Notes: generated by a model not told the origin, from the sequence alone. A stretch of DNA of 64,000 nt from a virus (IMGVR_UViG_3300044695_003432:1-64000); one strand, 5' to 3'; shown: positions 1-58,922, numbered from the stretch's first letter. Numbers and translations: made by a program.

Positions 1-247
1 CGCTCGTGGGCGTGCGCGGCGTTGGCCCGTGCCTGCGCATCCACCACGGGAACAACGTCACGAAAACAAGATTTCTCGTCGTTCTTGTTTTCTTGCGGGG
101 CGGGCTTAGGCAACTCCGCTTTACCACTGTTTGCGGTAGGAAAATCTGGGGGCGTTTCCTTTACTAGCCGCGCGTTCCCAGACGCCTCTGCTGTCAAAAC
201 CGGCGATGTTGCCTTTGGCTGACACTTCTCCCCTTCGACGGGGGTGA
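1..247. repeat. Copy 1 of a near-identical direct repeat (copy 2 at 43820-44072)
   Basis: cgctcgtgggcgtgcgcggcgttggcc... matches 43820 onward with 2 substitutions in the first ~210 bp, then diverges. Confidence 0.95.
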
Positions 248-11066: not shown

Positions 11067-12142
11067 TTCGTTTGTGTGTCGATTGTGTGTTGATTCGTTC
11101 CGGCCACCGGCCCTGTCACTCCCGCCATGAACTGGCCCGACTGGAAGTAGTGCCGAGCCGCCACGTCCGCCCGATGCCCGAGCCATTCACACACAGCGTA
11201 GTGCGGGTGCTGCCCGTTCCAATCGGTTTCCAGACTCGCCCGCAGCCCGTGGAAGGGCTTGCCGGGCCATGTCACTCCCGCTTTCTTGCGGATGGACGTA
11301 GCCGCCCGAAGGTAGGAACCCTTCGGCACCGCCCAGCACAGTTCTGCCACGCCGTCCGGCAGGGAATCCCGAGCCTCTTCCAGAAGGGCGTAGAGCCTCG
11401 GAGAGACGGGCACCGTCCGCTTGGCCTGCTTGGTCGTCTCTACCCCGTCACGCGGCCACACGGCAATCGTGCGGGCTTCCCAATCGACGTGTCCCAACTC
11501 CAGCGTCATCGCCTCCATGATCCGCAGGCCGGCGTACCGGGTGAGGCCGAACACCAGCCGCCACGATGCGTTCGGGCAGGCGGCTATCACCTTCTCGACG
11601 TCATCGACCGAGACGTAGGGGTGATCCTCGGACTTCTTGGGCATGGGATTCTTGACCGAATCGAACGGGTTACGGCTGACCACGCCCTGAATCCGCGCGG
11701 CCTCGAACCATGACCGGAGAAACGACACGATCCCCCACACGGTAGAGGGTGAGAGAATGTCGCCGTCCTTGACGTTCCCGCGCCGCTGCTTCCGCAACCA
11801 CGCGATGAAGTCGATCGCCTGGGTGGGCTGGATCGTGTCGAGAACCGCGTCCTTGCGGAAGTAGCGTTCGGCCCATTGCATCGCGGCCTTGTACCGCGTC
11901 ACGGTCGCCTCGTTGAGTTGTTCGTTCTGCGCGAGGTACTTGGTCCGCCAGTCGTCCAGCGTCTTGGCGTCGGACTTGACCGCTTGCGGCGACATGTCCG
12001 CGCAGATGGCGAGGGCATCGCGCCGTGTCACTTCGGAGCGTGCCCCGATGATCTTTCGCTGGAGTGCGTTGTTACCGTCACGCCATGCCGCTACCCAATA
12101 CTTGTTGTTCGTCCACAATCGAACGGGTTTGCGCCGTGTCAC
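11048..12142 (-). CDS. int: Tyrosine integrase
   Basis: AGLR, K, FHGLR, LGH, HY catalytic residues; AAAGGAG RBS. Confidence 0.93.
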   Translation of the reverse strand: MTRRKPVRLWTNNKYWVAAWRDGNNALQRKIIGARSEVTRRDALAICADMSPQAVKSDAKTLDDWRTKYLAQNEQLNEATVTRYKAAMQWAERYFRKDAVLDTIQPTQAIDFIAWLRKQRRGNVKDGDILSPSTVWGIVSFLRSWFEAARIQGVVSRNPFDSVKNPMPKKSEDHPYVSVDDVEKVIAACPNASWRLVFGLTRYAGLRIMEAMTLELGHVDWEARTIAVWPRDGVETTKQAKRTVPVSPRLYALLEEARDSLPDGVAELCWAVPKGSYLRAATSIRKKAGVTWPGKPFHGLRASLETDWNGQHPHYAVCEWLGHRADVAARHYFQSGQFMAGVTGPVAGTNQHTIDTQTKATSGI

Positions 12143-12279
12143 TCAAGGCTCCTTTCGCTAGGTGAAACCCCCGCCGCGTGTCTCCACGCTGGCGAGGGGA
12201 CTTGTGAGAAACCCCTGGCCGTCGCCTTTCAGCGGCGGCAGGGGAGCGGTGGCGCGCGAGGGCCACGCCACCGCAGGAA

Positions 12280-12627
12280 TCAACCTTGCGGCAGGTCTTT
12301 CGCGTGGACCATCGTTGCCATCAGTGCGGCGGCGGTAGCCCTTGCCTTGCGATCGGCGTACTCGTTGCGCTCGCCAGCGACCATGTACGCGAACGTCGGA
12401 TGAAAGTACGCCTCGGGCTTGTCGCCGTCCTTCGCAACGTGCCCGAGTTCGCCCCGCTTCACCGCGTCGCCGAGTGCCTTTCGCACGTCGCGGGGAACAG
12501 AGTTTGTGATAAGCCGCACCCGTTCGGCTAGAACCATTTGCACGTTGGCCTGCGCCAGCGTGATTCGACGGGCGTGCAAATCGTCCTTGATCTTGTCGAG
12601 CGTACTGCCTTGAAGTTCCATCGTCAT
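12280..12627 (-). CDS. Hypothetical early protein
   Basis: AAGGAG RBS; flanked by hairpin-rich spacers. Confidence 0.65.
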   Translation of the reverse strand: MTMELQGSTLDKIKDDLHARRITLAQANVQMVLAERVRLITNSVPRDVRKALGDAVKRGELGHVAKDGDKPEAYFHPTFAYMVAGERNEYADRKARATAAALMATMVHAKDLPQG

Positions 12628-12727
12628 ACTCCTTGTTATCCCCGCCCTGGTCGCCGGGCGCGCGCCGTGTCACTCACGGGAAACCACGCCGAACCCGGTA
12701 TGGTGCGGCGCGGGGTGGGTTAGTCGG

Positions 12728-12985
12728 CTAGCGGCTATTCTGCGACAGTGTGATGCGGGCAATGTTTCGCATGGCAAGCACCTGGTCGGCACTCGAAACC
12801 GACGAATCAAACTGCCCGCTGGCGATTAGCCTGAGCGCGCGCAGCAGAAGCGGGTACGCCTCTGCCCGCCGCAAGCGTTCCGCGTCCAGCCGTTCGCATG
12901 CGTCGGCGTTGGCCCGCATCATCGAACGGTGAGCGGCGAGACAATCGCTCAGGGTTGCGGGGCTGTTGTCTGTGTTCTGTTCCAT
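12728..12985 (-). CDS. Hypothetical early protein
   Basis: AGGAG RBS. Confidence 0.6.
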   Translation of the reverse strand: MEQNTDNSPATLSDCLAAHRSMMRANADACERLDAERLRRAEAYPLLLRALRLIASGQFDSSVSSADQVLAMRNIARITLSQNSR

Positions 12986-13093
12986 CGTTCACTCCTGCCC
13001 TTCCGGGCTTCCCCAACCGTGCGCCGGTTGATGCGGGCTGTCACTCAGCCGAAACCCCTACCTGCCGTGTCCGGCGCGGTGGGGTGAGGATTC

Positions 13094-13732
13094 CTAGACC
13101 AGTGCGGGCATCGACTCCAGCCGTTGCAATGCGGCGCGGGCATTGTTCTTGACATCCCGCATGATCTTGAGCGCGTCCGCTTCCGCGAGTTCAACGCCGA
13201 TCGTTCGCGCGATGTCACTCAGGCGGGATGCGAACGCTGCGGCGAATCCCTGATTCGTCAGCGGGATCGGGATGCAACGGGAAAGGACTTGCTGCGCCGT
13301 AGTGCGCTCGAAGAGTTCTTCCTGATCCTCAGCCGTGGTAGTGAAGAACCACGCGGCATGGTGCGGGATGCGTTCGAGGATGCCGCGCAGTTGGCCGAAC
13401 ACTTGGGGCTTGAGCGCGTGCGCCTCATTGACGATGACGACGCGCCCGCCCTTGCCCCAGCCGGGGCAGCGGAGCATATCGGCGAGCCTTTCCAAGTCTG
13501 AGACGCCCAACTCGGACCCGTCGCCGATTTCCTCGGTGGAGAAATCATCGGCGATCGCGCCGCCCATTATCCGGGCGAGTGTGGTTTTCCCTGTCCCGCT
13601 CGGGCCTGTGATCCAGAACGCGCGCCCGCCGATGATGTTGCGGTCGATGTAACTGCGGGCGATGCCGTGCGCTTTGGGCTGGCCGACAAACTCAGAGAGA
13701 GATCGCGGGCGGAAGGTTTCGTAGATGTTCAC
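13094..13732 (-). CDS. Clamp-loader clade AAA+ ATPase (DnaX/RFC/RarA-like)
   Basis: YETFRPRSLSEFVGQ, GPSGTGKTT, VVIVNEAH, SRC motif. Confidence 0.85.
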   Translation of the reverse strand: MNIYETFRPRSLSEFVGQPKAHGIARSYIDRNIIGGRAFWITGPSGTGKTTLARIMGGAIADDFSTEEIGDGSELGVSDLERLADMLRCPGWGKGGRVVIVNEAHALKPQVFGQLRGILERIPHHAAWFFTTTAEDQEELFERTTAQQVLSRCIPIPLTNQGFAAAFASRLSDIARTIGVELAEADALKIMRDVKNNARAALQRLESMPALV

Positions 13733-14025
13733 GCCGCACCCCCGATCGTCTCAGGCTTGGGGCTTGCCAGTTCCAACTTGTGAACACAGATCGGCGCGCC
13801 GTTGGGATGCTTCGGGTGTGATTCGTCCCACACCCAAGCGACACAACGCCCGAGCGAATGGAACGCCGCGCGGCCCGGATGCCCGAGCGGGGCGAGACGG
13901 AACGCGAGCAACGCCGCGTCCCGGTGGGTAGTCGATTCGACTTCGCGGGCCGACTTCCAATCAAGAGCCGCGTTCGGATCGTCTGAGGGAGCAACGAGAA
14001 CCACGCTGTAGGCTCGGGTTTTCAC
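13729..14025 (-). CDS. Hypothetical early protein
   Basis: Coupled overlaps on both sides. Confidence 0.55.
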   Translation of the reverse strand: MKTRAYSVVLVAPSDDPNAALDWKSAREVESTTHRDAALLAFRLAPLGHPGRAAFHSLGRCVAWVWDESHPKHPNGAPICVHKLELASPKPETIGGAA

Positions 14026-14429
14026 TTGACCCCCCCTTCGGCGCGGGCGATCGCGGCGCGGGCGATGGTTCGGATTTCACCGATCGCAAGGCTTACGTCC
14101 GTGGCGTTTCCCTGACAGCCCGCAAGCCGATCACAGCTCCGCAGCACTTCCAACAACTCCGGCGCGGAAGTCTTGCGGTCGATCAGGTCTGCGATTCCGT
14201 ACACGGTCTTTTCGCCGTACTCGGTCTTGATCCGATCGCGCCCGTTCATGATGACGCGAGCCGCGGCAAGCGCGCCGGGCGTGTAGTCGTCGTCCATCGT
14301 GCGCGGCCGCGCCGTGTCACTCAGGGCATCGGCAAGCCTGGCATGGCCCGGATCGTCGGGCGAACGCTCGGGAAAACACTTCGCCAACTCACGCCGAAGC
14401 GCGGATGCGGCCTTATCATTCAGTGACAT
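14022..14429 (-). CDS. Hypothetical early protein
   Basis: GGAG RBS; APELLEVL...ARAAIARAEG motif common in phage early proteins. Confidence 0.65.
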   Translation of the reverse strand: MSLNDKAASALRRELAKCFPERSPDDPGHARLADALSDTARPRTMDDDYTPGALAAARVIMNGRDRIKTEYGEKTVYGIADLIDRKTSAPELLEVLRSCDRLAGCQGNATDVSLAIGEIRTIARAAIARAEGGVK

Positions 14430-14554
14430 AGGGATACTCCATGTTCCTTGTCCACGCCCCCGGTGCTTGCGGCACGCGGGGGCAACTTATGCGCCGTGTC
14501 ACTTTGACGCGGTGCGGAATCAGGACGCGCACCGTTAGGCGCGCGCCGTGTCAC

Positions 14555-14815
14555 TTAGCGGGACTTCACAAACTCAATCGCACGCCCAGCGGCATCCAGT
14601 GTTCTTGGCATGACAGCGCATCCGGCCCGGTAGACGACAGCGCGGGCGCGGTTCTCATCGTCACAAACCCTCATCGTGTCGGCGTCCGCATCGGGCGGGT
14701 AGTCCAGCACGTCGGCGGAATGTCCGTGGAGATAGTCCAGCACGTCACGCACCGACCAACCGACAATTACGCGCGCGTCGTCCAACATGTTCCCGGCGAC
14801 AGTATTTACGCTCAT
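14555..14815 (-). CDS. Hypothetical early protein
   Basis: GGAG RBS. Confidence 0.6.
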   Translation of the reverse strand: MSVNTVAGNMLDDARVIVGWSVRDVLDYLHGHSADVLDYPPDADADTMRVCDDENRARAVVYRAGCAVMPRTLDAAGRAIEFVKSR

Positions 14816-14898
14816 CGTTTACACTCCATTCGTTGCGGCGAACGTGCTCCGGCGGAGCACAAGCGACGCGCGGGCCTTTCGACCGGCGCGGCGGAGGG

Positions 14899-15228
14899 TT
14901 ACTGCCCGTGTCGGCACCCGATCTGCCCACACTCTGAGCAGTAGTCGCCGCGCTTGATAGCCTTCAACTCATCGCGGTCGCAAGCCTCTAGGTGATCGTC
15001 TCCGACCATGCAGACGACCACGCGACCAGTGGGCGCGAAGTCCACGCCCAACGATTCTCCGTCGTCGTCGAAGGATTCGGTCTGTTCGATTTCATCCCCG
15101 CAGACATACCACGCGACAGACAGAGAACCTCGCCGGTATCGTCCGTCGTCGTCGTTCTCGACGTACAGACCATCGCGCCCAAAGGTGTAAGCCTCAGTAC
15201 CGTCGTCCAGTGTGATCGCGCGTCCCAT
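14899..15228 (-). CDS. Acidic early protein with C-terminal CxxC
   Basis: GGAG RBS; Asp/Glu-rich; CSECGQIGC. Confidence 0.6.
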   Translation of the reverse strand: MGRAITLDDGTEAYTFGRDGLYVENDDDGRYRRGSLSVAWYVCGDEIEQTESFDDDGESLGVDFAPTGRVVVCMVGDDHLEACDRDELKAIKRGDYCSECGQIGCRHGQ

Positions 15229-15308
15229 GTTCGATTCTCCATTCCCTCTTGCGGAGGGGTCGCGGTATTGCGAAGCGTTCCGCGCCGGGTTAGCGGGGCG
15301 GAACGGGT

Positions 15309-15521
15309 TTATCGTTCGATAGACTGCAAACACCGCATCGCGGCTTGGCGCGTCGCGTTCGATTTGAGGTACTCGGCGCGAGTGAACTCGACGTTTCGGA
15401 ACTTACCCGACGGCGTTCGCTCGGCGGTGCATATCTCCGCACCATCGCTCGGGCGAACCACAATGACGTACTCGGCGTCGGCCACGTTTCCCGATCGGAT
15501 AGTAAATCCAGCGTTTGCCAT
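15309..15521 (-). CDS. First early gene of phage A, hypothetical
   Basis: GGAGG RBS just downstream of a sigma70-like promoter. Confidence 0.6.
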   Translation of the reverse strand: MANAGFTIRSGNVADAEYVIVVRPSDGAEICTAERTPSGKFRNVEFTRAEYLKSNATRQAAMRCLQSIER

Positions 15522-42676: not shown

Positions 42677-43009
42677 TCAGCCTCCTTTGTCCAAAGCCTC
42701 CACCGCCGCCGCGAGTGCGAGGAAGCGGGTGTTTCCACCGACGCCATTCTCGTACTCCCAATAGGCACAGTCCCCTACCGCGTCGTCGCACAAGTTGATC
42801 GTTCCCAACCTCTCCACCATCGCCCACGCGATCGCGGAGAGGGCGTGAAGCGGGTGGCACCATCCGTCAAACTCGGAACCGTCGTGCCAGTGTTCCGCGT
42901 CGAGTCCGTCGTGGTGGCGGCGTTGCACCGTCTTCGGCCACCACTCCGCGTCCTTGTACGTTTTGTACAACTCCACCGCCTTCGCGTGGTCTGCTTCGGT
43001 GAATGTCAT
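42677..43009 (-). CDS. Hypothetical protein
   Basis: Coupled ATGA overlap. Confidence 0.55.
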   Translation of the reverse strand: MTFTEADHAKAVELYKTYKDAEWWPKTVQRRHHDGLDAEHWHDGSEFDGWCHPLHALSAIAWAMVERLGTINLCDDAVGDCAYWEYENGVGGNTRFLALAAAVEALDKGG

Positions 43010-43260
43010 GGCTTCCCTTTCCGCTCGGTGCCGTTGAGGATGGCGAGGATGTCGCGCTTGTGGATGTACCAGCGGTCGGGTGCCGCCTGCTCGCACAGTT
43101 CCCTCACCCTGCGGAGTTTCTCGCGGTCGTTCGTCCACTCGCGGGTGAGGACGGTCACGATGTCGCGATCCGTGTCGCGATCGCCATTTGCGGGCTTCTT
43201 TTCGCCCCGAATCGCGTCACTTTGTCGCGATTTCTGTCGCGATTCACGCTTCTTCGCCAT
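43006..43260 (-). CDS. Hypothetical protein
   Basis: GGAGG RBS. Confidence 0.55.
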   Translation of the reverse strand: MAKKRESRQKSRQSDAIRGEKKPANGDRDTDRDIVTVLTREWTNDREKLRRVRELCEQAAPDRWYIHKRDILAILNGTERKGKP

Positions 43261-43462
43261 CGCTCGCCTCCTTGATCGTCTTCTCCACTTCCTGCCGAAT
43301 GACGTACCCGAGTGCGGGCAGGTCCACGCCGAACAGCCGACGATACTCACGGGCACGGTTGACGATGCGGTTGGCACACTCGTTGGCGGCGATCTGGTCG
43401 TCGGTCCAGCCGCCGAGGTAGAGCGTGAGCGACTGCGTGTTTTGGTCAAGTGGAAGGGGCAT
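43244..43462 (-). CDS. Hypothetical protein
   Basis: AAGGAGG RBS. Confidence 0.55.
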   Translation of the reverse strand: MPLPLDQNTQSLTLYLGGWTDDQIAANECANRIVNRAREYRRLFGVDLPALGYVIRQEVEKTIKEASDGEEA

Positions 43463-43572
43463 CGCTCGCCTCCTTCTTCGAGTTGTCAAGTGCGGCTTGA
43501 CTGCTGGGGGAACTATTCGATGTTGTCGAAAGGTTCACTTGCTTCTCCTTTTCCACTTTCCACCCCGAAACG

Positions 43573-44091
43573 CTAATTTGCGGGGCGTGATTTAGTGCTG
43601 GGTTGAATTTCGTCGGCGATGGTGATGCCCGCTTCGGCAAGAGCAGCGCGCCACGCATGATCGCGGGCATGGATCATCCGCATCTCGGCGTCGGTGAACA
43701 GGCCGGGCGTTTTCGCAACGGTCGGTGCCTTCACCACCATCGCGGCGGGCTTGGGTGCGGGCTCAACTGCGGCGAGGCGGGATTCGAGGGCGGTGATGCG
43801 CTTCCATGCCTCGTGTAGCCGCTCGTGGGCGTGCGCGGCGTTGGCCCGTGCCTGCGCATCCACCACGGGAACAACGTCACGAAAACAAGATTTCTCGTCG
43901 TTCTTGTTTTCTTGCGGGGCGGGCTTAGGCAACTCCGCTTTACCACCGTTCGCGGTAGGAAAATCTGGGGGCGTTTCCTTTACTAGCCGCGCGTTCCCAG
44001 ACGCCTCTGCTGTCAAAACCGGCGATGTTGTCTTTTGCTGACACTCGGGCTTCTCCCCTTCGCCGGGGGTGATCGTGTTCTCGCTACTCAT
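43573..44091 (-). CDS. Hypothetical protein spanning the A/B junction (shared gene)
   Basis: Near-identical to the ORF at the window start over its central part. Confidence 0.75.
   Translation of the reverse strand: MSSENTITPGEGEKPECQQKTTSPVLTAEASGNARLVKETPPDFPTANGGKAELPKPAPQENKNDEKSCFRDVVPVVDAQARANAAHAHERLHEAWKRITALESRLAAVEPAPKPAAMVVKAPTVAKTPGLFTDAEMRMIHARDHAWRAALAEAGITIADEIQPSTKSRPAN
43820..44072. repeat. Copy 2 of the direct repeat shared with 1-247
   Basis: Direct sequence comparison. Confidence 0.95.
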
Positions 44092-44363
44092 GCTGCCACC
44101 GTCCTTTCCTTCCGAATCTTCTTCAGAATCTTCTTCACATCGCTCGCCGCGGTCTCGGGAACTTCCATCCCCATCCGCTCGGCGATCTCCCGGAGTACGG
44201 GATCGTTGACGAAAGCCCGATGGAGTTTACCCAGGGCTCTCTGCTCGATGGCGAAGGCATTGGCCTTTGTGCAGGGGGTTCCGCGGGCGGTGAGTATCTC
44301 GGCACACTCGCCGAGGGTGCGGATGCCGGAGTTACGCTCTTCTTTGGTGTAGCCGGTGCTCAT
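44088..44363 (-). CDS. Sigma70 region 4-like HTH protein
   Basis: RTLGECAEIL...AFAIEQRALGKL. Confidence 0.55.
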   Translation of the reverse strand: MSTGYTKEERNSGIRTLGECAEILTARGTPCTKANAFAIEQRALGKLHRAFVNDPVLREIAERMGMEVPETAASDVKKILKKIRKERTVAA

Positions 44364-44743
44364 GCCGCCACCCCCATTCCCATATCCTCGGCAAACTCCT
44401 CGGCTTCATCCTGCGGCCATTCCTGATTCGTGTATTCACGGGGAGCGAACGCGGCGAAGATCACATCCTCTTCGTTGATCCCCTCAAGGACCGCGGGCAC
44501 GTCGATCGAGACCTCTTCGATCCCGGAATCTTCCCACTCGATTGCGTTCCGGAGGCGGAGGCAGGAGAAGAGGGACATGAGCCGGATGGGCTCCTCGTCG
44601 AGGGCATCGAGAGCCAGAGTCAGCCGGGAACCTACGGGGGCCGGTGTGAACAGAGCCCGGAGGTACTCACGGGATTCGCGGGCGATGCTCCGCGTCCATG
44701 CGTCGAGGACCAAGGTACGGTAAGACTTCTTCCGATCTGCCAT
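44360..44743 (-). CDS. Hypothetical early protein with acidic C-terminus
   Basis: Follows a cassette repeat; GGAG RBS. Confidence 0.65.
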   Translation of the reverse strand: MADRKKSYRTLVLDAWTRSIARESREYLRALFTPAPVGSRLTLALDALDEEPIRLMSLFSCLRLRNAIEWEDSGIEEVSIDVPAVLEGINEEDVIFAAFAPREYTNQEWPQDEAEEFAEDMGMGVAA

Positions 44744-44822
44744 GATGCAAAGACTCCAAAGGCCCCAGCGTCATTGCTAGGGGAAACGATCCGAGACCGG
44801 GTAGGGTGTCGGATCGGATGGA

Positions 44823-45677
44823 TCAGCGAACGGGGAACCCCTCGCCGCGGTCGAAGTACCGGACGACGGTTCCGGGGTCGGTGTGGCTTCCACCGGCGTA
44901 CCGCATCGTTTTTCCGCCGGTCGGCCACCAGTCCGGGAAGCGGTGCGACTTGCTTTCAATGCCCGTGACGGTTCCGGAGCGGCTGTCAGACTTGTAGCGG
45001 ACAGTCTGCTCTACCGGGCGGTCTTCGCGGCGGAGGTAGACCCCGACGCGGACAGTGCCGATCCCGGAAACCTCAGAGAACCAGTGCGCGGAGCAAGTGC
45101 TATTTGAGTAGTGCGGGGAGTGAGCCCAGAAGGTGACAGGGGCGATCGGCGTGCGTTCCGGGTTTCCCTTCTCTGATCGGGACTCCGGACAAATGCTAGT
45201 GCATCCGTCCCGGCGAATCTCCGCGGGGATCGGAGGAAGTGCCGCAACGATCCGGAGAAGATCGGACCAGGAGAGCCCGCCTTCTTTGTGCATCGAGAAC
45301 GAATCGCCGTAGGTGAGCCAGGCGGCTTCGGTAGAGTGGTGCCCTAGCACCGTCACCAGCCGGGGCGGAAGGTCTTCGAGGGCGTGGCGGATGATGGCCT
45401 CAGTCTCGGCCTTCAGGATATCTTGTTCGGCCTTCTCGATTGCCTTTACCCAGATATCCGAAACGGGCACGGCGATTGGGTATTCTGACGTGAGATCGTT
45501 AGGGGCGAAATAGCCCTCGACGGTGGAGCCACTGAGGAACCACTCCCCCTTTTTAGGTGGGCGGCTCTCCCCCGTTGGCCGTACTTTGGTAGCCGTTCCC
45601 GCTCGGGTCCGATCCTCTTCCGCGATTGGGTAAAGGCGGCTTCCGGGAAACTCCCACTTCATGTCTCTAAGCTGCAT
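44823..45677 (-). CDS. Hypothetical early protein
   Basis: Bounded by repeats; TGESRPPKKGEWFLSG motif. Confidence 0.7.
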   Translation of the reverse strand: MQLRDMKWEFPGSRLYPIAEEDRTRAGTATKVRPTGESRPPKKGEWFLSGSTVEGYFAPNDLTSEYPIAVPVSDIWVKAIEKAEQDILKAETEAIIRHALEDLPPRLVTVLGHHSTEAAWLTYGDSFSMHKEGGLSWSDLLRIVAALPPIPAEIRRDGCTSICPESRSEKGNPERTPIAPVTFWAHSPHYSNSTCSAHWFSEVSGIGTVRVGVYLRREDRPVEQTVRYKSDSRSGTVTGIESKSHRFPDWWPTGGKTMRYAGGSHTDPGTVVRYFDRGEGFPVR

Positions 45678-45755
45678 GGCTTTACCTTTCAAAGGCTCCG
45701 GCGGTATTGCCGGAGGAATCGACCCGGAACCGTTTCGGGTGCCGGATCGGATACT

Positions 45756-46085
45756 TCAGACAGTGCAGGCGGGTCCGTAGGGCTTGCTAGAAAGTCCCTC
45801 TCGGACCAGGATGAGACGCGAACCCGTGAAGGGGATGCGATCTCCGTCGCGGGGATAGACCCACCATTCGCCCCGCGACTGAGAGACGTAGAACCCCAGA
45901 GCGAACTGGGCCGCGGCTTGATTCATGCGGAGCTTGGTTGTCGCGGTTTTCCAGCCGCCCGTATTCAGATCGATAAGGGAGGAGTCAAACGAAACCACAT
46001 CGGTATTGTGATACCGAACGATCGTTCGCCCCCCCTCAGCGCGAATAGAGGTAGCTACGCCGGAGACTTTCAGAGTTTGGGCCAT
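45756..46085 (-). CDS. Hypothetical phage early protein
   Basis: Bounded by repeats; YHNTDVV...LNTGGWKTATTKLRMN. Confidence 0.75.
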   Translation of the reverse strand: MAQTLKVSGVATSIRAEGGRTIVRYHNTDVVSFDSSLIDLNTGGWKTATTKLRMNQAAAQFALGFYVSQSRGEWWVYPRDGDRIPFTGSRLILVREGLSSKPYGPACTV

Positions 46086-46164
46086 TGCTTTCCCTTTCAA
46101 AGGCTCCGGCGGTATTGCCGGAGGAATCGACCCGCAAGCGGTTAGGCTAGCTGGTCGGATGCTT

Positions 46165-46299
46165 CTACTCCGCGTCTCTGCTGCCAGGCTCCTCGGGGAA
46201 GAGGGCATCGGCGGCGGATTGGAGGAAGAGGGGTAGGAGGGTGCAGAGGAGGAGGGAGAGGAGGACCAGGGAGAAGAGGAGGAGGGAGGCATAGAACAT
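46165..46299 (-). CDS. 44-aa membrane peptide (not in the ORF track)
   Basis: MFYASLLLFSLVLLSLLLCTLLPLFLQSAADALFPEEPGSRDAE; GAAAGGG RBS; exactly fills the gap between two repeats. Confidence 0.7.
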   Translation of the reverse strand: MFYASLLLFSLVLLSLLLCTLLPLFLQSAADALFPEEPGSRDAE

Positions 46300-46433
46300 C
46301 GGTTTCCCTTTCATCTACCGATGGCCTATTCCATCGGTGAATCCGCCGATGAGACTTTCATCTAATCGGAAGGAAGGGGAGAGGAGAAAACCACCCAGGG
46401 CGGTTACCCGCGTCTGGGTGGCTGAAAGGGAAA

Positions 46434-46673
46434 CTAGTGGAGCTGTTCGGCGGAGTAGTGTACGCCGATCATCGAAGCGGATACGACGAGATCAAAGGCA
46501 AATGTACAGATGAGAGGGTCGGGACAGTCGAGACGGAACCGGATTTCTTCTATGGCCTTTGCCTTTGAAGGGGCCCTGATACCATCGAACACCAGGGATA
46601 CTTGCGGATCGCTCGGTCGGGGCTTGTCCTTTGGACCAGCGAAGTATGCGACGCGGACGGAATAGCTTTTCAT
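46434..46673 (-). CDS. Hypothetical early protein
   Basis: Bounded by repeats. Confidence 0.7.
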   Translation of the reverse strand: MKSYSVRVAYFAGPKDKPRPSDPQVSLVFDGIRAPSKAKAIEEIRFRLDCPDPLICTFAFDLVVSASMIGVHYSAEQLH

Positions 46674-46756
46674 CGGGTGCCCTTTCAAAGGCTCCGGCAC
46701 AATCGCCGGAGGAATCGACCCGCAAGCGGTTACGCTAGCGGATCGGGTTGATTGGT

Positions 46757-47332
46757 CTAGAACTCTTCACCCTCTTCGGTGTACCGTTCTTCGTCTTGGT
46801 CGAGATACTCCAGGATGCCTGCCTCGGAGATTCGGTACTCCAAGTCATCCTCACAGATTCGCATGATCCGATCGGCTGCCCAATCGAATCCTCGGGAAAG
46901 GGTTTCACCGGATCGGATGGCGTCTAGGACAGCTTCGATAACGTCATCATCGAAGCAGACGCCAGACAGGCCACAGATACCGGGAAACTTTCCATCCTTC
47001 AACTGGTCTGGAGTGTAACCCTTGGGACGGAGGCATTCCCAGAACCATTCTTCGACCTTCTCTCCGGTATCGGAGAGGGTATCAATCTCATCATCCCCCA
47101 AGAAGGATTGGCGGAGGCTACACCGATTCCCGCGATTGTACGGGCCGATGCTCCAATCGCTCAGGGTAACGCACAAGGCATCGGCGAGCTTCTTCAGAGA
47201 ATCAATACACTCGGAGAGGGTGAAGTTATCGTCATCCCCGCCAATGTCCTCGGCGATATCGGCGATAACCCGATCCTGAGACTTTTCTGACAGCTCAGAG
47301 AATGAATACAGCTCGGTCTCTTGCGTTCTCAT
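46757..47332 (-). CDS. Highly acidic early protein
   Basis: Bounded by repeats; LYSFSELSEKSQ...YTEEGEEF. Confidence 0.75.
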   Translation of the reverse strand: MRTQETELYSFSELSEKSQDRVIADIAEDIGGDDDNFTLSECIDSLKKLADALCVTLSDWSIGPYNRGNRCSLRQSFLGDDEIDTLSDTGEKVEEWFWECLRPKGYTPDQLKDGKFPGICGLSGVCFDDDVIEAVLDAIRSGETLSRGFDWAADRIMRICEDDLEYRISEAGILEYLDQDEERYTEEGEEF

Positions 47333-47410
47333 CTTTGACCCTTTCAAAGGTTTCCTAGCGACATGCTAGGGAATCGATCCGGTAGCCTTTCAGCTACGGG
47401 ATCGGGTGAA

Positions 47411-47611
47411 TCATTCGTAATCGTGCCAGTCTCGGACTTCCCCACGCGTCTGAAGTCTCCAGTTCATATCGGGCTCGGCATCGCGGTATGCCTGCAAAGT
47501 TTTCAGTAGATACGGAAGTCTATGGGGCAGATCGGACTCGTGGACTGTCCAGCGAGAATCGACGGTGAACCAACCAGGGCCGGACGACACTAAACGGAAG
47601 TTATTCGGCAT
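47411..47611 (-). CDS. Hypothetical early protein
   Basis: Bounded by repeats. Confidence 0.65.
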   Translation of the reverse strand: MPNNFRLVSSGPGWFTVDSRWTVHESDLPHRLPYLLKTLQAYRDAEPDMNWRLQTRGEVRDWHDYE

Positions 47612-47687
47612 TGTGTTCCCTTTCAAAGGTCCGGCGGTATTGCCGGAGAATCGATCCAGCATCCTTTCGGATGCCGGATCGGATGGA

Positions 47688-47945
47688 TCATTCGTCGTCC
47701 TCTTCAAGCAGATACACAATCCCACAATGTTTGCATGTCGGCAGGGGATGCCCGATCGGAGGCACGATCCTAGGGGCGGGTTCATGTCGGCAGTTGTCGA
47801 TATCGTACAGTTGATCCTTCAGCTCTTGGGCATTGTTCTCGATCTCTTCGATCTCTTCCTGAGAGAATCGATATCTCAGGGATGCCCGATCCGAGAGGAT
47901 GGATTCGATCTCTTCGATGCGTTCGGCGAGCTGTTCGCGTGTCAT
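47688..47945 (-). CDS. First early gene of phage B, acidic coil plus CxxC
   Basis: GAAAGGG RBS; CKHC. Confidence 0.65.
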   Translation of the reverse strand: MTREQLAERIEEIESILSDRASLRYRFSQEEIEEIENNAQELKDQLYDIDNCRHEPAPRIVPPIGHPLPTCKHCGIVYLLEEDDE

Positions 47946-48069
47946 GTGTTTCCCTTTCAAAGGAATGAGTGAAAACCCCGCACGCGGTTTCCCGCATGCA
48001 GGGCGTTTAGGTTTCGGTTTCACTTGTCAGAGAAGGGGATTCGGGCCGTTGCCCGTCTCCGATGAGTGA

Positions 48070-48098
48070 AGTATCGGCTATACGAGAAGGAAAGACAA
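48070..48098 (-). promoter_or_regulatory. Sigma70-like early promoter of phage B
   Basis: TTGTCT-17-GATACT upstream of the cassette array. Confidence 0.5.
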
Positions 48099-48605
48099 TC
48101 GGCTTGTTTGCGGATTCGGAAAGATTGTGTCTAAGGGGCTGAAAAACAGGGGCTTGCGTTTAGATGGTTTTCTGGTAGGATCGGGAGAGATTGGAGCGAT
48201 ACCGATGGAATGGATGATTGAATGGGTGTTTGGGTATGGGCCGATTGTGTTTGCTGGGGTCGTGGTCGGCTGGTGGCTGAGAGACAGGGAAGAGAGACGA
48301 AAAGCCCCAGTCACGAAAACTGGGGCAAGGGTTGAATGATCGTTCAAGGAACAGAGGCACGATGCTCGATCGCTCCAGCGGATTGAAAGTCTGCAACGGG
48401 TGGCGTGATTCGCTGCACTATCGGCAGGGCTTGTGTCCGCACACGTGCCGATGCTCGCGGATGCGGTCGCTCGGGCGGGCTCGGGCAGGCTCGCGGCCCC
48501 ACCCCCACGGGGGGAATCCGCCTGGCCCGCTAAACGATACCCTCTGAAAAGTTTCTGCTAGAAAAGCGGACCTAGGGATTTCTCCCCAGATCGCCTATAA
48601 CGCCA

Positions 48606-48845
48606 TTAGACCGCATTAGAGCCATTCCTAGACCGGGTGGACCCTTGGGTATCCCCAACCCCTAGAACGCCTCCTGAGCCATCTAATGCCCTCCCAGACC
48701 CATCCACACACGAGTTCATCTCCCCAACGGTTCCTATCCTTCTCAGAGCCTCTCTCGCAACCGTTTGAACCCCCTCGCATCCCATCCTAGCCACCCTCTG
48801 GAGGGCATCCTCGGCTATGAGCAGGCGGGATCGGTCATCCATCAC
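48606..48845 (-). CDS. Hypothetical protein
   Basis: Coupled to the upstream gene after terL. Confidence 0.45.
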   Translation of the reverse strand: MMDDRSRLLIAEDALQRVARMGCEGVQTVAREALRRIGTVGEMNSCVDGSGRALDGSGGVLGVGDTQGSTRSRNGSNAV

Positions 48846-49102
48846 TTCCTCCCTCTGCGTCTCGTCTGCGTCTTTCCTGCGTCCACCTCTGCGTCCACCT
48901 CTGCGTCCACCTCTGCGTCCACCTCTGCGTCCCCCTTCACAACCCCGTCCACCCCTCCCTCTCCATCTCCTCCTCCATCTCCGCCAACATCTCGTCCAGG
49001 TTCATCACCTCCACCCTTCACCTCCTCCCCCTTGGGGGGTTCAGCCTGAGCGACGTACATCTGCTTGATCGAGTCCCAATAGTTGATTAGCGAGTGATCC
49101 AT
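48842..49102 (-). CDS. Low-complexity acidic protein with DAEV repeats
   Basis: AGGAG RBS; 12-bp tandem repeat. Confidence 0.5.
   Translation of the reverse strand: MDHSLINYWDSIKQMYVAQAEPPKGEEVKGGGDEPGRDVGGDGGGDGEGGVDGVVKGDAEVDAEVDAEVDAEVDAGKTQTRRRGRK
48877..48931. repeat. 12-bp tandem repeat CTGCGTCCACCT, about 4.5 copies
   Basis: Read directly. Confidence 0.9.
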
Positions 49103-50778
49103 GAGTGGTGCTTTCTGGGCTCCTTGGCCCCTACCTGAAACTTGAGGAACTTGTCCATCTCCATCTTCCACACCCGATCCTTTGCTCGGGCGTTCTCCTC
49201 CTCGGTCTTCTGACTCATCACCTCGGTCCAGGATTGAACCGCGATGGCGACGGCTTCAAGCCGGTCATCGTGAGCCAGACACCCTGCCATCTTGCGGATG
49301 TGGGTGAGCTGGTAGAAGAGCTGGTAGGTCTTAGCGACCTCTGAGGGGTAGCTGGCGGTGGACTTGTAATCCCGCTCGATGAGAGCGGCGTTGACGATCA
49401 TCTTGTGAGACTCGATGATCGGACCAAGGGTGTCGATCATGCGGGCCTCTTTGTTGCCCTTGGACCAGGGAGCATCCTCTACGGAGCAGAGTTGATTCCC
49501 TCTGACTGCCGCTTGGAGCATCTTGGTGAACATGCCTCCGCCGTAGTTAGGCTCGCAGAAGATCCGGTTCACCTTGTACCGCTTGGCGATGGAGGCAAGG
49601 CGGGTGAGGGTGGTGTCTGAGAAACCCTCAAGGAACCCCCCAGCATCGAGGAGGAACATCTGCCCATGCAGATACCCCACAACCCCGTATGCGGTCTCGT
49701 CCTTACCCCGGCCTGACGGATCTACTCCCATGTGAATCCCCACGAAGGGGAGCCTGAGAGCGTCCTTGAGAGCCACACCGCGGTACGGCCTGTCTCCCCT
49801 GAACCCCACCAGATTGACGTTCTTGATCTCCTGGTCTGGGTCGTTGTTCCAGGCCACCCGTTCCGGGATGTCCCCGGTGTCGAAGTCGTAGAAGCAGAGG
49901 TCTCTGTACCGGAAGGGGTACATCTCTGCATCCTGCATCTTCGGGTTCAGCATGAACTGAAGACCGAAGGTGGCACGGCCAATCGAGGACTCGATCTCCT
50001 GGAGCTTGGTCTCGGGGAAGCGGGTGGGCTCTGTAGGCTTGCCCTCTAGGGTGGGGTCTTTCTCCAAGTCCTTGAGCAGGTCTTCAGAGATGTCCCCATC
50101 CACCGCTTCGATGTCAGCCTTGCTGGGATACCGAGCGGTCCAGACGGTCTTCTTGTACCCTCGCTTCTCCAGCTCGGCGTACAGGGTCTCCTCGGTCTGG
50201 GGAGTACCGAGGTAGCAGATCCTCCCCGTCTCCGGCTTGGCGATCATCTCGAACTCTTTGACCTTCTCTGCGATCTTCTCTCGCATGAGGACGGTCTCTG
50301 AGTTCTCCGGGGTCTCGATGTCGTCGGGGATGATGAGATCGGCACGGAAGCCGGTAATCATGCCCGTGATCGGACGGGAGTACACAGAGGGGAACTGGCC
50401 TGACTTCACACAACCGACATCGAAGGCAATGGCGGAGTCTCGCTGACCGGGGTTCGGTCGGAGAGGCTCCAGCACATCCATCCCCTGAATCAACATCCGG
50501 GAAAACTTGGAGAACTCATCCGCTCGGCGGGCACCGCCTGAGCAGACGAGGATGTTCCACGAAGGGTTCCAGTACAGGAACCAAGGCACCGCACAGCCGG
50601 TGATGATCGACTTACCAATCCCGCGGGGGGCCTCGATGATCTGACGCTCGGGACCGTGTTGGATCTTGTGAGCGATCGAGTACTGGAGGGGGGTGGGGGA
50701 AGGGAGACCGAGATGCTTGAAGGCGAGGTAGAGGAAGTTCCGAAAGTCCCGCAGGGCGGGGTCGGGGGTGTAGTTCAT
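49087..50778 (-). CDS. Terminase large subunit (T7 gp19-like)
   Basis: DFRNFL, APRGIGKS, RADLIIPDDIE, LGTPQTE, VDPSGRGKDETAY, HDDRLEA. Confidence 0.96.
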   Translation of the reverse strand: MNYTPDPALRDFRNFLYLAFKHLGLPSPTPLQYSIAHKIQHGPERQIIEAPRGIGKSIITGCAVPWFLYWNPSWNILVCSGGARRADEFSKFSRMLIQGMDVLEPLRPNPGQRDSAIAFDVGCVKSGQFPSVYSRPITGMITGFRADLIIPDDIETPENSETVLMREKIAEKVKEFEMIAKPETGRICYLGTPQTEETLYAELEKRGYKKTVWTARYPSKADIEAVDGDISEDLLKDLEKDPTLEGKPTEPTRFPETKLQEIESSIGRATFGLQFMLNPKMQDAEMYPFRYRDLCFYDFDTGDIPERVAWNNDPDQEIKNVNLVGFRGDRPYRGVALKDALRLPFVGIHMGVDPSGRGKDETAYGVVGYLHGQMFLLDAGGFLEGFSDTTLTRLASIAKRYKVNRIFCEPNYGGGMFTKMLQAAVRGNQLCSVEDAPWSKGNKEARMIDTLGPIIESHKMIVNAALIERDYKSTASYPSEVAKTYQLFYQLTHIRKMAGCLAHDDRLEAVAIAVQSWTEVMSQKTEEENARAKDRVWKMEMDKFLKFQVGAKEPRKHHSWITR

Positions 50779-57168: not shown

Positions 57169-58922
57169 TGATCGGATTTCTTAGCGGGAGCGAGGGAGGG
57201 CGAGTCCGAGGAGGACGAGCCGGAGCGGGTGGCGTTGAAGGGGATCTCGGACTGAATCTGCTTGACGAACTCGGTGAGCTTGGACATGGCATCCTCGGGG
57301 AGGATCTTCTTGCCCCCGCGGGAGTTCATCTTGTAGGAGAACCACTTCTCAGACAGAGCGGCCTTGGCACGGACGATGCGGGCTCCGGTCTCACTGGAGG
57401 CGGAGGGCATACCAGGCATCGGGAAGGCGAAGGCGGCTGCTGCCGGATCGTTCTCGATGTATGCGGCGACGAGCTGCTGCTCGGCGACTCGGTACGCATC
57501 TTCGATCGTGGGGAACTTCTCGGCCTGCTCGGCACGGTCGATCCACTTCGAGGCCTCGTGCTCGGTGATGGCACCGTTCTTGGCGAGGTAGAAAACATAC
57601 TCAGTGCTGAGGGGATCACGAGGATCGAGTTCCTCAGACATGATGTTCGAGCGGATCAGGGCGTTCGGGGCAGAGCCGATCTCACGATCGAGCTCGTTGA
57701 CGCGATCCGTGAGTTCCTTCGCTGCCCCCATCTGGCGGAAGGCATCGAAGAAGCGGGCACGGGCTCCGGGGAGATCTCCGGTTTCCTTGACGTAGCCTTC
57801 GAGTTCGCCTCGAAGGTACTTGAGGGCCTCGGAGGAGGCTTGGCTATCGGCGGTGTGGATGTTCGAGGACAGCTTGTATCGCTCATTGAAGTAGCTCTCG
57901 AAGGCCCCCGGAGGGACGTTCTGGAGCATCTCCGGGGGGAGACGATGCGAGAGGGGATTCTCCCCCGCGGCGGTGTGGGCGTAGAGCGAGTCGCTAGCGG
58001 ACTTGCCCCAAGTGTCTGCGGCTTGCTTGACCGCTTCGGACTGCTGCTTCATCTCTTGGAGGATGAGCGAGTTGACGCGGGTGGCGGTGTTGTAGCGGAC
58101 TTCCTGAGCGGCGGCGGTGTTGCCGAGGGGAGCTCCGTCCTTGCCCTTGAGTTGAGAGAGGATGCGGGGGGCGAGGTTGGCGTCCTTGGCTTGGAGGGAG
58201 GCCTCTTCGATGGACTCGTAGAGGATCTTGTTGGCGATCGTGGGGTGCATGGTCCGAAGCATCTCGTCGAGATGGGTCTGGACCTCGGCCACGCCATCGG
58301 CTGAGTCGAACTTCGAGCCAGCGGTAAAGATGGAGGTGAGGTAGTCTCGGGCCTTCTCTTGGCGTTCCACCTGACGCTCTTGGGAGCGTTGGTTGGACCA
58401 CTGGTTCAGAACCCGAGACTTCATCGAGTCGAGTTCGGGGACCGCAGCCTCGGCAGCGAATGGCGAGAGGTTCTGAGCGAAGCCGGAGAAGTGCTCATCC
58501 CAAAGAGAAGCCACCGCGTCGGGGTTGTCTTGGAACCGAGCGGGGTCTTCTTCGAGCTTCTTATCGAACCCGAGAGCGAGCTTGCGGGCCTCGGCCTTCG
58601 CCACCTCCTGCTCGGCCTGAGCCATCGACCAGGGGTTATCCGCCCAAGGGATCTCTCCAGCATCGACCGCCTTCTTGAAGGAGGCCATGTTGTCGAGACG
58701 CTTGGTGAGGACATCCTTGGTGGCTCGGAGTTCCGAGGCACGGCGGTAGGCGGAGAACTGGCGATCGAGGACGCCTTGGAGGCGGGGATTGAACTCGCGG
58801 AGAGACGCGGCAAGCTGAAGGGCCGGGTTGGCGGGGGCAGGGGCGGCGACATCGGCCTGCCGGAACTGATCCACAGGGCGGGCCTGCGGGTCAAGGGGGA
58901 CGTACGAGTTCATCGAGGACAT
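57165..58922 (-). CDS. Internal virion/ejection protein (gp15-like)
   Basis: PQARPVDQF, LAASLREFNPRL, NPW; gene order. Confidence 0.75.
   Translation of the reverse strand: MSSMNSYVPLDPQARPVDQFRQADVAAPAPANPALQLAASLREFNPRLQGVLDRQFSAYRRASELRATKDVLTKRLDNMASFKKAVDAGEIPWADNPWSMAQAEQEVAKAEARKLALGFDKKLEEDPARFQDNPDAVASLWDEHFSGFAQNLSPFAAEAAVPELDSMKSRVLNQWSNQRSQERQVERQEKARDYLTSIFTAGSKFDSADGVAEVQTHLDEMLRTMHPTIANKILYESIEEASLQAKDANLAPRILSQLKGKDGAPLGNTAAAQEVRYNTATRVNSLILQEMKQQSEAVKQAADTWGKSASDSLYAHTAAGENPLSHRLPPEMLQNVPPGAFESYFNERYKLSSNIHTADSQASSEALKYLRGELEGYVKETGDLPGARARFFDAFRQMGAAKELTDRVNELDREIGSAPNALIRSNIMSEELDPRDPLSTEYVFYLAKNGAITEHEASKWIDRAEQAEKFPTIEDAYRVAEQQLVAAYIENDPAAAAFAFPMPGMPSASSETGARIVRAKAALSEKWFSYKMNSRGGKKILPEDAMSKLTEFVKQIQSEIPFNATRSGSSSSDSPSLAPAKKSDQ

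Follow-up and report, generated by a model that had tools for sequence, protein, structure and literature searches.

The first 64,000 nucleotides (nt) of the virus record IMGVR_UViG_3300044695_003432, the window analysed here, contain an array of eight consecutive genes, p1 to p8, each led by one copy of a structured element that we call a junction unit (E1 to E8). The genes run from position 47945 down to 44360, all on the minus strand. The initial annotation had proposed that eight consecutive genes each lie behind a related element, and this holds, with the correction that genes and repeat have their sense on the minus strand. From p1 to p8, the stop-to-start gaps measure 76, 78, 83, 134, 79, 78 and 79 nt and are filled exactly by the units; the two genes after p8 overlap by 4 nt and carry no unit. 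In six gaps the layout is canonical: stop codon, ~7 nt, a first hairpin of 30 nt (HP1), a 4-nt AUUC or UUUC linker, a second hairpin (HP2) with a 6-8 bp stem and a 5-6-nt loop, a 12-nt box, 6 nt and the AUG.

The canonical units are E2, E3, E4, E6, E7 and E8. E2 (47612..47687) has HP1 at 47652-47681, with 13 pairs that are perfect but for one G·U and a GAAA loop, followed by AUUC, HP2 inside 47629-47648 and the box at 47618-47629. In E3 (47333..47410), HP1 (47375-47404) leads through AUUC to an HP2 of CCUAGC/GCUAGG with a 5-nt loop and to the box at 47339-47350. E4 (46674..46756) places HP1 at 46716-46745, HP2 at 46692-46711 and the box at 46680-46691. The corresponding positions are 46128-46157, 46104-46123 and 46092-46103 in E6 (46086..46164), and 45720-45749, 45696-45715 and 45684-45695 in E7 (45678..45755), whose HP2 is identical to that of E6 and whose box has one mismatch. 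E8 (44744..44822) combines HP1 at 44787-44816, a UUUC linker, HP2 at 44763-44782 and a degenerate box. A covariance model, R1, was built from these six units, so that its scores on them (91.8, 79.3, 94.2, 99, 101.9 and 84.5 bits in the order given, or 79-102 bits) are circular. Outside the training set, R1 scores 25.8 bits at 46297-46375 (E5) and 23.0 bits at 47943-48013 (E1), which confirms the earlier division into six canonical and two divergent copies. Folding z-scores of the canonical units range from -2.7 to -5.5, a stability equalled by 0-3 of 200 shuffles. Between units, sequences differ by 14-39%, and the 42 bp previously reported as identical between two canonical units are exact (45685-45726 in E7 equals 46093-46134 in E6). 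No known family was matched in Rfam, where the best of five hits (E up to 10) reached 23.1 bits against a threshold of 63.5. An 11-mer, ATCCATCCGAT, precedes HP1 in E2 and E8; it also stands directly after the stop codon of the RNA polymerase gene of the same phage (alpha, see below), outside the window (80227-80237 of the full record, G000), where the hairpin is absent, and may there be a decayed unit or a chance match.

The two divergent units depart from this plan in different ways. E1 (47946..48016), the leader of p1, consists of an HP1-type hairpin at 47975-48004 (12-13 bp, GAAA loop), a UUUUC tail and the box at 47952-47963; it has no HP2, and the two-hairpin layout described earlier applies to the six canonical units and E5 only. 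E5 (46300..46433) is a composite. It had been set aside as divergent, which is right for its stem sequences, but the unit is complete, with HP1 at 46343-46372, AUUC and HP2 at ~46318-46337, and it carries additional parts: a terminator-like hairpin with UUUU at ~46390-46420, then a CU-rich spacer, and a box-complementary segment at 46417-46434 that overlaps the p4 stop codon and extends just beyond it. This segment pairs with the box region at 46302-46319 through 18-nt arms that are 89% complementary and 97 nt apart, within a fold of minimum free energy -67.7 (z -6.97). Because of this long-range pairing, the predicted fold suggests that access to the ribosome site in E5 can be governed by RNA structure.

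The same architecture occurs in two further sources. The full record (85,132 nt) holds two complete T7-type gene sets, here called alpha and beta; the array adjoins alpha, and three units lie among the genes of beta, on the minus strand. The unit at 15237..15314 (38.5 bits with R1), in the beta early region, has a 30-nt HP1 with C·C at position 9, a CUUC linker, a 4-bp HP2 with an AAUACC loop, a 5-bp hairpin and a GGAG ribosome site. At 14827..14902 (17.9 bits), HP1, a CUUG linker, HP2 and a small hairpin precede GGAG, and at 12631..12722 (24.1 bits) HP1 has C·U at position 9 and is followed by UUUC. The slot of the box is taken in the beta units by a 5-bp hairpin of other sequence just before GGAG. 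Beta also contains, at 12030-14555 on the minus strand, six exact copies of an 11-13-mer (AGTGACACGGC...) in a single orientation, in and between early genes; one AGTGACACGGC-type copy, the 13-mer, fills the HP2 slot of the unit at 12631..12722. The third source is a metagenome contig of 1,273 nt, L015, with two units (R1 78.3 and 77.5 bits) that are 92% and 81% identical to E2. L015 resembles the record in these units only: its four open reading frames (ORFs) have no homolog in the 85-kb record (tblastn E above 0.1). It also has a module like that of E5, with a box-complementary motif, a terminator-like hairpin and a gene for a small hydrophobic peptide.

Wider searches added no carrier. L015 was the one real match among 59 in the metagenome pattern scan. 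Pattern scans of IMG/VR followed by R1 gave one match in one scan (AT-rich coding sequence, a chance match) and 41 in the other (best 19.1 bits), none of them a real carrier; 44 matches in GTDB genomes (best 16.4 bits) included none that was real, and the whole array drew no blastn match among 50,697 cultured-phage records. Inside the window, an R1 match at 57884-57981 (17.2 bits) falls within a large virion gene and is regarded as spurious. The alpha RNA polymerase has no close relative in IMG/VR, although relatives at 94% (P0001) and 78% (P0002) identity are known; the gene for P0002 is present in IMG/VR only at the start of a contig (L076) that begins inside it and excludes the early region, and R1 found no unit over 15 IMG/VR loci anchored on RNA polymerase. 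A terminase search returned one complete genome at 45% identity, IMGVR_UViG_3300033120_000213 (L135), in which the terminase gene is followed by three repeated TTGACA-type promoters (11863-12371), like T7 A1-A3, and then by tightly packed early genes that lack junction units. In the cultured relative Lo5R7ANS, four of seven early gaps or leaders contain stable hairpins (z -3.0 to -4.2), which form no repeat family.

Thirteen copies of HP1 (eight from alpha, two from L015, three from beta) were compared in a fixed frame, with two arms of 13 positions around a 4-nt loop. Together they form 136 Watson-Crick pairs, 14 G·U pairs, no A·C pair and 19 other mismatches. The hairpin is 30 nt long in 13 of 13 copies and has a recurrent architecture: an 8-bp lower stem with a C-G base, a pyrimidine-pyrimidine (Y·Y) mismatch at position 9 (9 of 13 copies), A-U at position 10 (10 of 13) and, in 8 of 13, a GAAA loop. 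The linker after HP1 is xUUC in twelve copies and CUUG in one. In an ungapped alignment of 12 copies from the three sources, from which E1 was omitted (MAFFT shifts it by one column), pairing extends to 93.1% of cells, compared with 67.6% in shuffles, of which 0 of 500 reach this value; both partners have changed in 11 of 12 pairs, and pairing in slid controls is 25-41%. Within the same alignment, C1-G30 is present in 12 of 12 copies and A10-U21 in 10 of 12, U32 and U33 are invariant and C34 occurs in 11 of 12. HP2 behaves similarly: over eight copies (E3, with its 5-nt loop, was omitted) 93.9% of cells are paired against 72.3% in shuffles, again with 0 of 500 reaching it, changes are two-sided in 5 of 7 pairs, and the loop, AAU(ACC), keeps A9 and U10 invariant. 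The earlier statement that the stems vary with pairing kept is therefore upheld for both hairpins. The presence of G·U without A·C, together with GNRA-type loops, indicates that the sense strand folds, and the fusion of the fold to a ribosome site favours mRNA, so that the folded molecule is the sense strand and most likely the message.

The 12-nt box, CCTTTGAAAGGG (CCUUUGAAAGGG), occurs exactly five times in the 85,132-nt record, always in the array and always on the minus strand. At up to two mismatches there are 13 matches, counted on both strands as befits a palindrome, against 3.9 expected, and 0 of 100 shuffles reach this number. Its 3' half, AAAGGG, lies 6 nt before each ATG, and other alpha genes use AGGAA- or AAGGA-type sites, which makes the box the Shine-Dalgarno element. 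The 5' half can pair with the 3' half in a weak, predicted third hairpin. In the Mesorhizobium phage Lo5R7ANS (L178 1020-1120), the leader of the first early gene is a long hairpin followed by UUGAAAGGG, with the ATG 8 nt later; UUGAAAGGG has the same unusual ribosome-site wording as the alpha box.

Alpha comprises an integrase, a T7-type RNA polymerase, SSB, primase-helicase, family A DNA polymerase, exonuclease, portal, capsid, nozzle and terminase, and beta has a separate RNA polymerase, portal, capsid, tube, nozzle and terminase, plus integrase, ERF and DnaB. A segment at 43006-44072 recurs at both ends of the record (window 1-247; G000 84993-85132) with 95.7% and 98.6% identity. In two of three metagenome runs, contig depth over 42968-44137 is 2-5 times that over the array, and loose contig ends branch at 43006 and 44109. 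The terminal repeats and the pile-up of contigs show that the record consists of two different T7-like phages joined through a common segment of ~1 kb, as an assembly chimera or a co-integrate. The array starts ~1.1 kb beyond the alpha terminase gene and comes after the genome end; the integrase, RNA polymerase, DNA polymerase, portal and capsid genes of alpha all lie downstream of it. This matches the position of the host-transcribed early genes in T7. The array is thus the left-end early region of alpha, and we infer that it is transcribed by the host polymerase. Judged by terminase, the closest cultured phages are the Mesorhizobium, Rhizobium and Ralstonia podophages (44-46% identity); alpha is an uncultured freshwater T7-like phage, for which a proteobacterial host is a reasonable guess, no more.

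Between the terminase gene and the array lie terminator-like hairpins at 48304-48326 and 48569-48592 and, on the minus strand, an ORF (48842-49171) with four tandem 12-nt repeats at 48887-48932 that encode a repeated DAEV motif. Four other tandem 12-nt repeats (GGAGTAGTACTA), a possible operator or promoter array, lie outside the window (G000 82820-82860, minus strand), ~120 nt before the start of the alpha RNA polymerase.

The genes between the junctions are small and mostly without a family match. No Pfam or PHROG family was matched by six of the eight cassette proteins or by the two genes after the array; the two matched are p3 and p6. The first gene, p1 (47688..47945), encodes an acidic protein of 85 aa, p2 (47411..47611) one of 66 aa and p4 (46434..46673) one of 79 aa, and p5 (46165..46299) a hydrophobic peptide of 44 aa. 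The largest protein is p7 (284 aa; 44823..45677), whose start was set at the ATG at 45677 and not at that of a longer TTG ORF, because this ATG is 6 nt past the box; a protein atlas offered no usable match to it, and in IMG/VR it matches near-identical records only, two in number. The last unit-led gene, p8 (44360..44743), encodes 127 aa and is acidic. The very acidic p3 (191 aa, 48 D+E against 19 K+R; 46757..47332) belongs to phrog_10310, of unknown function, and has 17 further metagenome matches at 38-99% identity besides the window's own; homologs at 38-58% identity come from metagenome contigs of 39-58 kb and hence from phages whose genomes differ in size, and one at 80% identity (P0122) lies on a contig of 1,289 nt. 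The p3 family is a mobile small-gene family. Its profile found nothing below E 0.66 among PDB sequences, and neither p3 nor L015 gene 2 has a match in IMG/VR. The protein p6 (109 aa; 45756..46085) is a member of the Kyano_Gp96 family (PF23790, E 1.8e-7; phrog_554), a family named for T4-like cyanophages and seen here in a T7-like freshwater phage. The label 'anti-host' for these genes stays a guess, because family matches are limited to p3 and p6; the sole hint is the acidity of p1, p3 and p8, which is DNA-mimic-like.

Taken together, where the units lie, which strand they use, how they fold and their link to the ribosome site fit an intercistronic RNA junction of a long early transcript. We propose, with a probability of roughly 0.58, that the units are RNA processing, stabilising and translation-presenting junctions of the alpha early operon, which would serve also as homology linkers. 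The early genes would be transcribed as one long host-polymerase message. HP1 would cap the 3' end of the upstream message, either after an endonuclease cut in or beside it or as a plain barrier to exonucleases, and HP2 with the box would form a standard 5' leader that gives each foreign gene a uniform context for ribosome entry, insulated from its neighbours. The cut might be made by RNase III at HP1 or by a single-strand-specific enzyme such as RNase E at the A/U-rich linker, the two being about equally likely; RNase III is possible yet not favoured over such an enzyme, because HP1 spans only about one helical turn. A strict scan for sigma-70-like promoters found no site in 43000-49200, and a relaxed scan found three, all outside the units. 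The ~80-nt conserved junctions would, as a side effect, supply patches of homology through which units trade parts and unrelated genes swap between related phages.

The initial annotation had spoken of an element that standardises expression, and this is a fair description of a strand-specific fold fused to the ribosome-binding site of each cassette gene. Its analogy with the T7 RNase III sites is apt as to setting, the left-end early region of a T7-like phage. Another of its suggestions, put-like antitermination, is not supported: antiterminator RNAs of the put type are found singly behind a promoter, and here there are eight copies, one per gene, with no match in Rfam.

Several observations weigh against a processed early message. 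A convincing early promoter was not found: the sole sigma-70-like site upstream of the array in the relaxed scan, TTGTCT-17 nt-GATACT at 48070..48098 on the minus strand, matches 8 of 12 positions and is weak, and the strict scan gave none. The runs listed as containing the phage, 20 from 10 studies, are DNA runs, with no RNA run among those listed for this stretch. The terminator-like, U-tailed hairpins before p1 and in mid-array sit poorly with one continuous transcript. HP1 itself is short, stacking over 12-13 positions that usually comprise 8 bp, a 1x1 mismatch and a further 3-4 bp, and no conserved lower stem or coaxial partner was seen in the folds. E. coli RNase III substrates typically have two turns, and the shortest reactive helix has 11 bp from the cut to the tetraloop (PMC1540722). 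In processing signals of the T7 type, an internal loop or bulge confines the cut to one strand; the T7 folds have large internal loops and 9-10-bp upper stems with short lower stems, unlike the compact alpha HP1 with its one Y·Y mismatch. The HP1 and HP2 windows were picked from folds of these very sequences, which inflates the paired percentages and leaves the double changes unaffected, and the copies come from three mutually related sources only. Whole-unit folding energy is better in the sense than in the antisense direction in just six of ten units (E1-E8 and the two of L015). Finally, G·T pairs are tolerated in single-stranded DNA too, and strand specificity is no strict proof of RNA.

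Exchange between phages bears on a different explanation, in which the units are chiefly DNA homology linkers for the shuffling of single-gene cassettes among co-infecting phages and the RNA fold is secondary. L015 has units in common with alpha (92%, 81%) and none of its ORFs, none of p1-p9 has a homolog in beta, and E6 is a mosaic, with an HP1 that is 94% like that of E4 (three broken pairs) joined to the HP2 and box of E7. Taken together, these three findings argue that junctions are held in common and exchanged while the genes between them differ; p3 homologs also occur on 39-58-kb contigs, in other genome types. A parallel is offered by the promoter-early stem-loop (PeSL) units of T4-type phages, whose recombination needs short homology only and yields mini-circles (PMC2839356). 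On the other hand, compensatory changes, the constant 30-nt length, the asymmetry of G·U over A·C and the GAAA loops indicate selection on a folded single strand, and units that diverge by 14-39% would be poor recombination substrates. Contigs of three metagenome runs, from different studies, cross five of the eight units (E1, E2, E3, E5 and E7) in constant, colinear order, which is weak evidence against frequent shuffling. Deletion or circle joints were absent from the array in these contigs, which conceal rare variants, all six listed joints lying outside 44,100-48,100; a raw-read run (X21) gave six reads over the stretch, all below 90% identity. We consider it unlikely that recombination is the chief role of the units. 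The earlier suggestion of cassette shuffling keeps its first half, since the units act as conserved linkers, as L015 illustrates, and loses the integron-like mechanism it invoked.

The invariant bases open another route, namely that the units are binding sites for a specific protein, whether one that represses or activates translation or a dedicated structure-specific endoribonuclease, of phage or host, and that such a protein reads the HP1 base, the Y·Y mismatch, the UUC tail and the AAUACC loop. Within a freely covarying hairpin, C1-G30, A10-U21, U32/U33 and C34 are kept, the length of HP1 is fixed, the A9 and U10 of the HP2 loop are invariant, and the AAUACC loop recurs in beta; these features leave room for a dedicated protein reader. 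A similar role has been suspected for the SAS/ESAS elements of mycobacteriophages, in which a Shine-Dalgarno-containing 13-bp box lies 3-7 bp before starts, with inverted repeats upstream (PMC3203893). However, no candidate RNA-binding protein or nuclease was recognised, six of the eight cassette proteins and the two following genes having no Pfam or PHROG match, and the invariants could reflect recent common ancestry of the copies; a protein site as the primary role seems doubtful. A bolder version, which we hold to be similarly improbable, makes each junction the site of a dedicated sequence- and shape-specific RNA-processing or RNA-binding factor common to a guild of freshwater T7-like phages. 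Such a factor would read the 30-nt HP1 (C-G base, Y·Y at 9, A-U at 10), the UUC tail and the AAUACC loop; every junction would be cut or clamped, any inserted gene would be expressed as an insulated monocistronic message, and co-infecting alpha, beta and L015 phages could trade single genes by homologous exchange with no need of an integrase.

The tail sequences speak to transcription attenuation, in which the hairpins would act as attenuators or terminators that grade expression or isolate cassettes. UUUUC follows HP1 in E1, a separate hairpin in E5 is followed by UUUU, and PeSL stem-loops work as terminators (PMC2839356), but no terminator-like call fell on any of the six canonical units, their tails being AUUC or UUUC only, and the units hold no promoter to restart transcription, which makes this reading quite improbable. 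An integron-like array, in which a phage tyrosine integrase would recombine the units as folded single-stranded attC-type sites, is extremely improbable: alpha does encode a tyrosine integrase, and single-gene cassettes do lie between imperfect palindromes with conserved ends and variable centres, but across the eight units the attC core motifs GTTRRRY and RYYYAAC number zero and one (a stray copy in a loop), as had been noted before, several stems are perfect without extrahelical bases, each unit bears the next gene's ribosome site, the integrase, in the usual lysogeny position, matches a general phage family, and no joints occur within the array. Two further candidates were rejected. Phage RNA polymerase promoters would not have their conserved blocks split by variable hairpins, and there is no contiguous ~20-nt consensus; MITE- or REP-type mobile DNA does not accord with units that run exactly from stop to start and bear the ribosome site.

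Phage early regions show the fastest turnover of anti-host genes, and to our knowledge the way in which newly acquired early genes come to be correctly expressed is poorly understood beyond T7 and T4. The array is an unusually clean case, with eight genes, a single junction design, strong covariation and specific invariant bases; beta shares the architecture, and the L015 fragment has the same junctions around unrelated genes. Should a defined factor cut or bind the junctions, they would offer a compact, natural part for insulation and processing, as well as a marker for cassette arrays in metagenomic phages, and a factor dedicated to them would amount to a natural plug-and-play cassette system. 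If they are merely stable hairpins, they are one more case of ordinary phage gene punctuation.

Among known systems, the early region of T7 offers the closest setting. Its five early intergenic regions (V01146), which we folded, measure 62-184 nt, compared with 76-134 nt for the gaps of the alpha array, and in each there is a related hairpin that keeps its base and varies at the top. These hairpins are the RNase III sites R0.3, R0.5, R1, R1.1 and R1.3, which the T7 record itself does not annotate. As in alpha, they occupy the stop-to-start gaps of small early genes at the left end of the genome, with a constant stem base and a variable top some tens of nt ahead of the next ribosome site. They share no sequence similarity with the alpha units, in which HP1 is adjoined by a second hairpin and a palindromic ribosome-site box and its helix is of the minimal length for RNase III. 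In T7, cutting of a single strand leaves a protective 3' hairpin (PMC1540722).

The PeSLs resemble the alpha units in their construction. As described by Arbiol et al. 2010 (PMC2839356), they are conserved units of ~80-100 nt that reach from the upstream stop to the downstream start, with a stem-loop, a Shine-Dalgarno sequence and the start codon at the 3' end; they flank ORFan genes, are more conserved than these genes and act as recombination linkers. The defining feature of a PeSL is a strong sigma-70-like promoter preceded by an AT-rich stretch, its stem-loops are G/C tracts that work as terminators, and it gives rise to mini-circles, which have no counterpart seen in the alpha array. Among PeSL phages, relatives differ in genes up to the edges of the units; for alpha the one relative available to compare, L015 of 1.3 kb, has the units alone in common with it. 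Because the alpha units have no sigma-70-like promoter inside, they are not PeSLs as so defined. A further paper on the PeSL cassettes of T4-type phages is Comeau et al. 2014 (PMC4122927).

The SAS/ESAS elements of Cluster K mycobacteriophages (Pope et al. 2011, PMC3203893) offer a likeness to the box. That paper defines a 13-bp box, GGGATAGGAGCCC, placed 3-7 bp ahead of the start and preceded by conserved inverted repeats of 17 bp, and gives its function as not known. Both systems place a partly symmetric Shine-Dalgarno box of 12-13 nt shortly before the ATG of non-structural genes, with inverted repeats immediately upstream, and conserve it before genes of differing families. They differ in the sequence of the box, in the arms, which in ESAS are conserved over 17 bp around a variable spacer and in alpha covary freely, and in distribution, scattered over half a genome against a contiguous array with one unit per gene. 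The alpha units are analogous in design and not members of the SAS/ESAS family.

Two further likenesses complete the comparison. Integron attC sites, too, separate single-gene cassettes by imperfect palindromes whose ends are conserved and whose centres vary; the alpha units differ in having neither core sites nor extrahelical bases and in carrying a ribosome site. REP elements are enterobacterial intercistronic palindromes of ~30-35 nt, co-oriented with transcription, that can shield the upstream mRNA from 3' exonucleases. In size, orientation and possible protection of the upstream message they resemble HP1; they differ in being chromosomal, in having a conserved head of their own, in not being fused to the next ribosome site and in their spread by dedicated transposases. 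As a kind, hairpin punctuation between phage genes is familiar. What appears to be new, judged from sequence, is the family and its design (a 30-nt HP1 with a Y·Y mismatch, an HP2 with a conserved loop and a palindromic Shine-Dalgarno box), as well as the common architecture in two very different, co-occurring T7-like phages.

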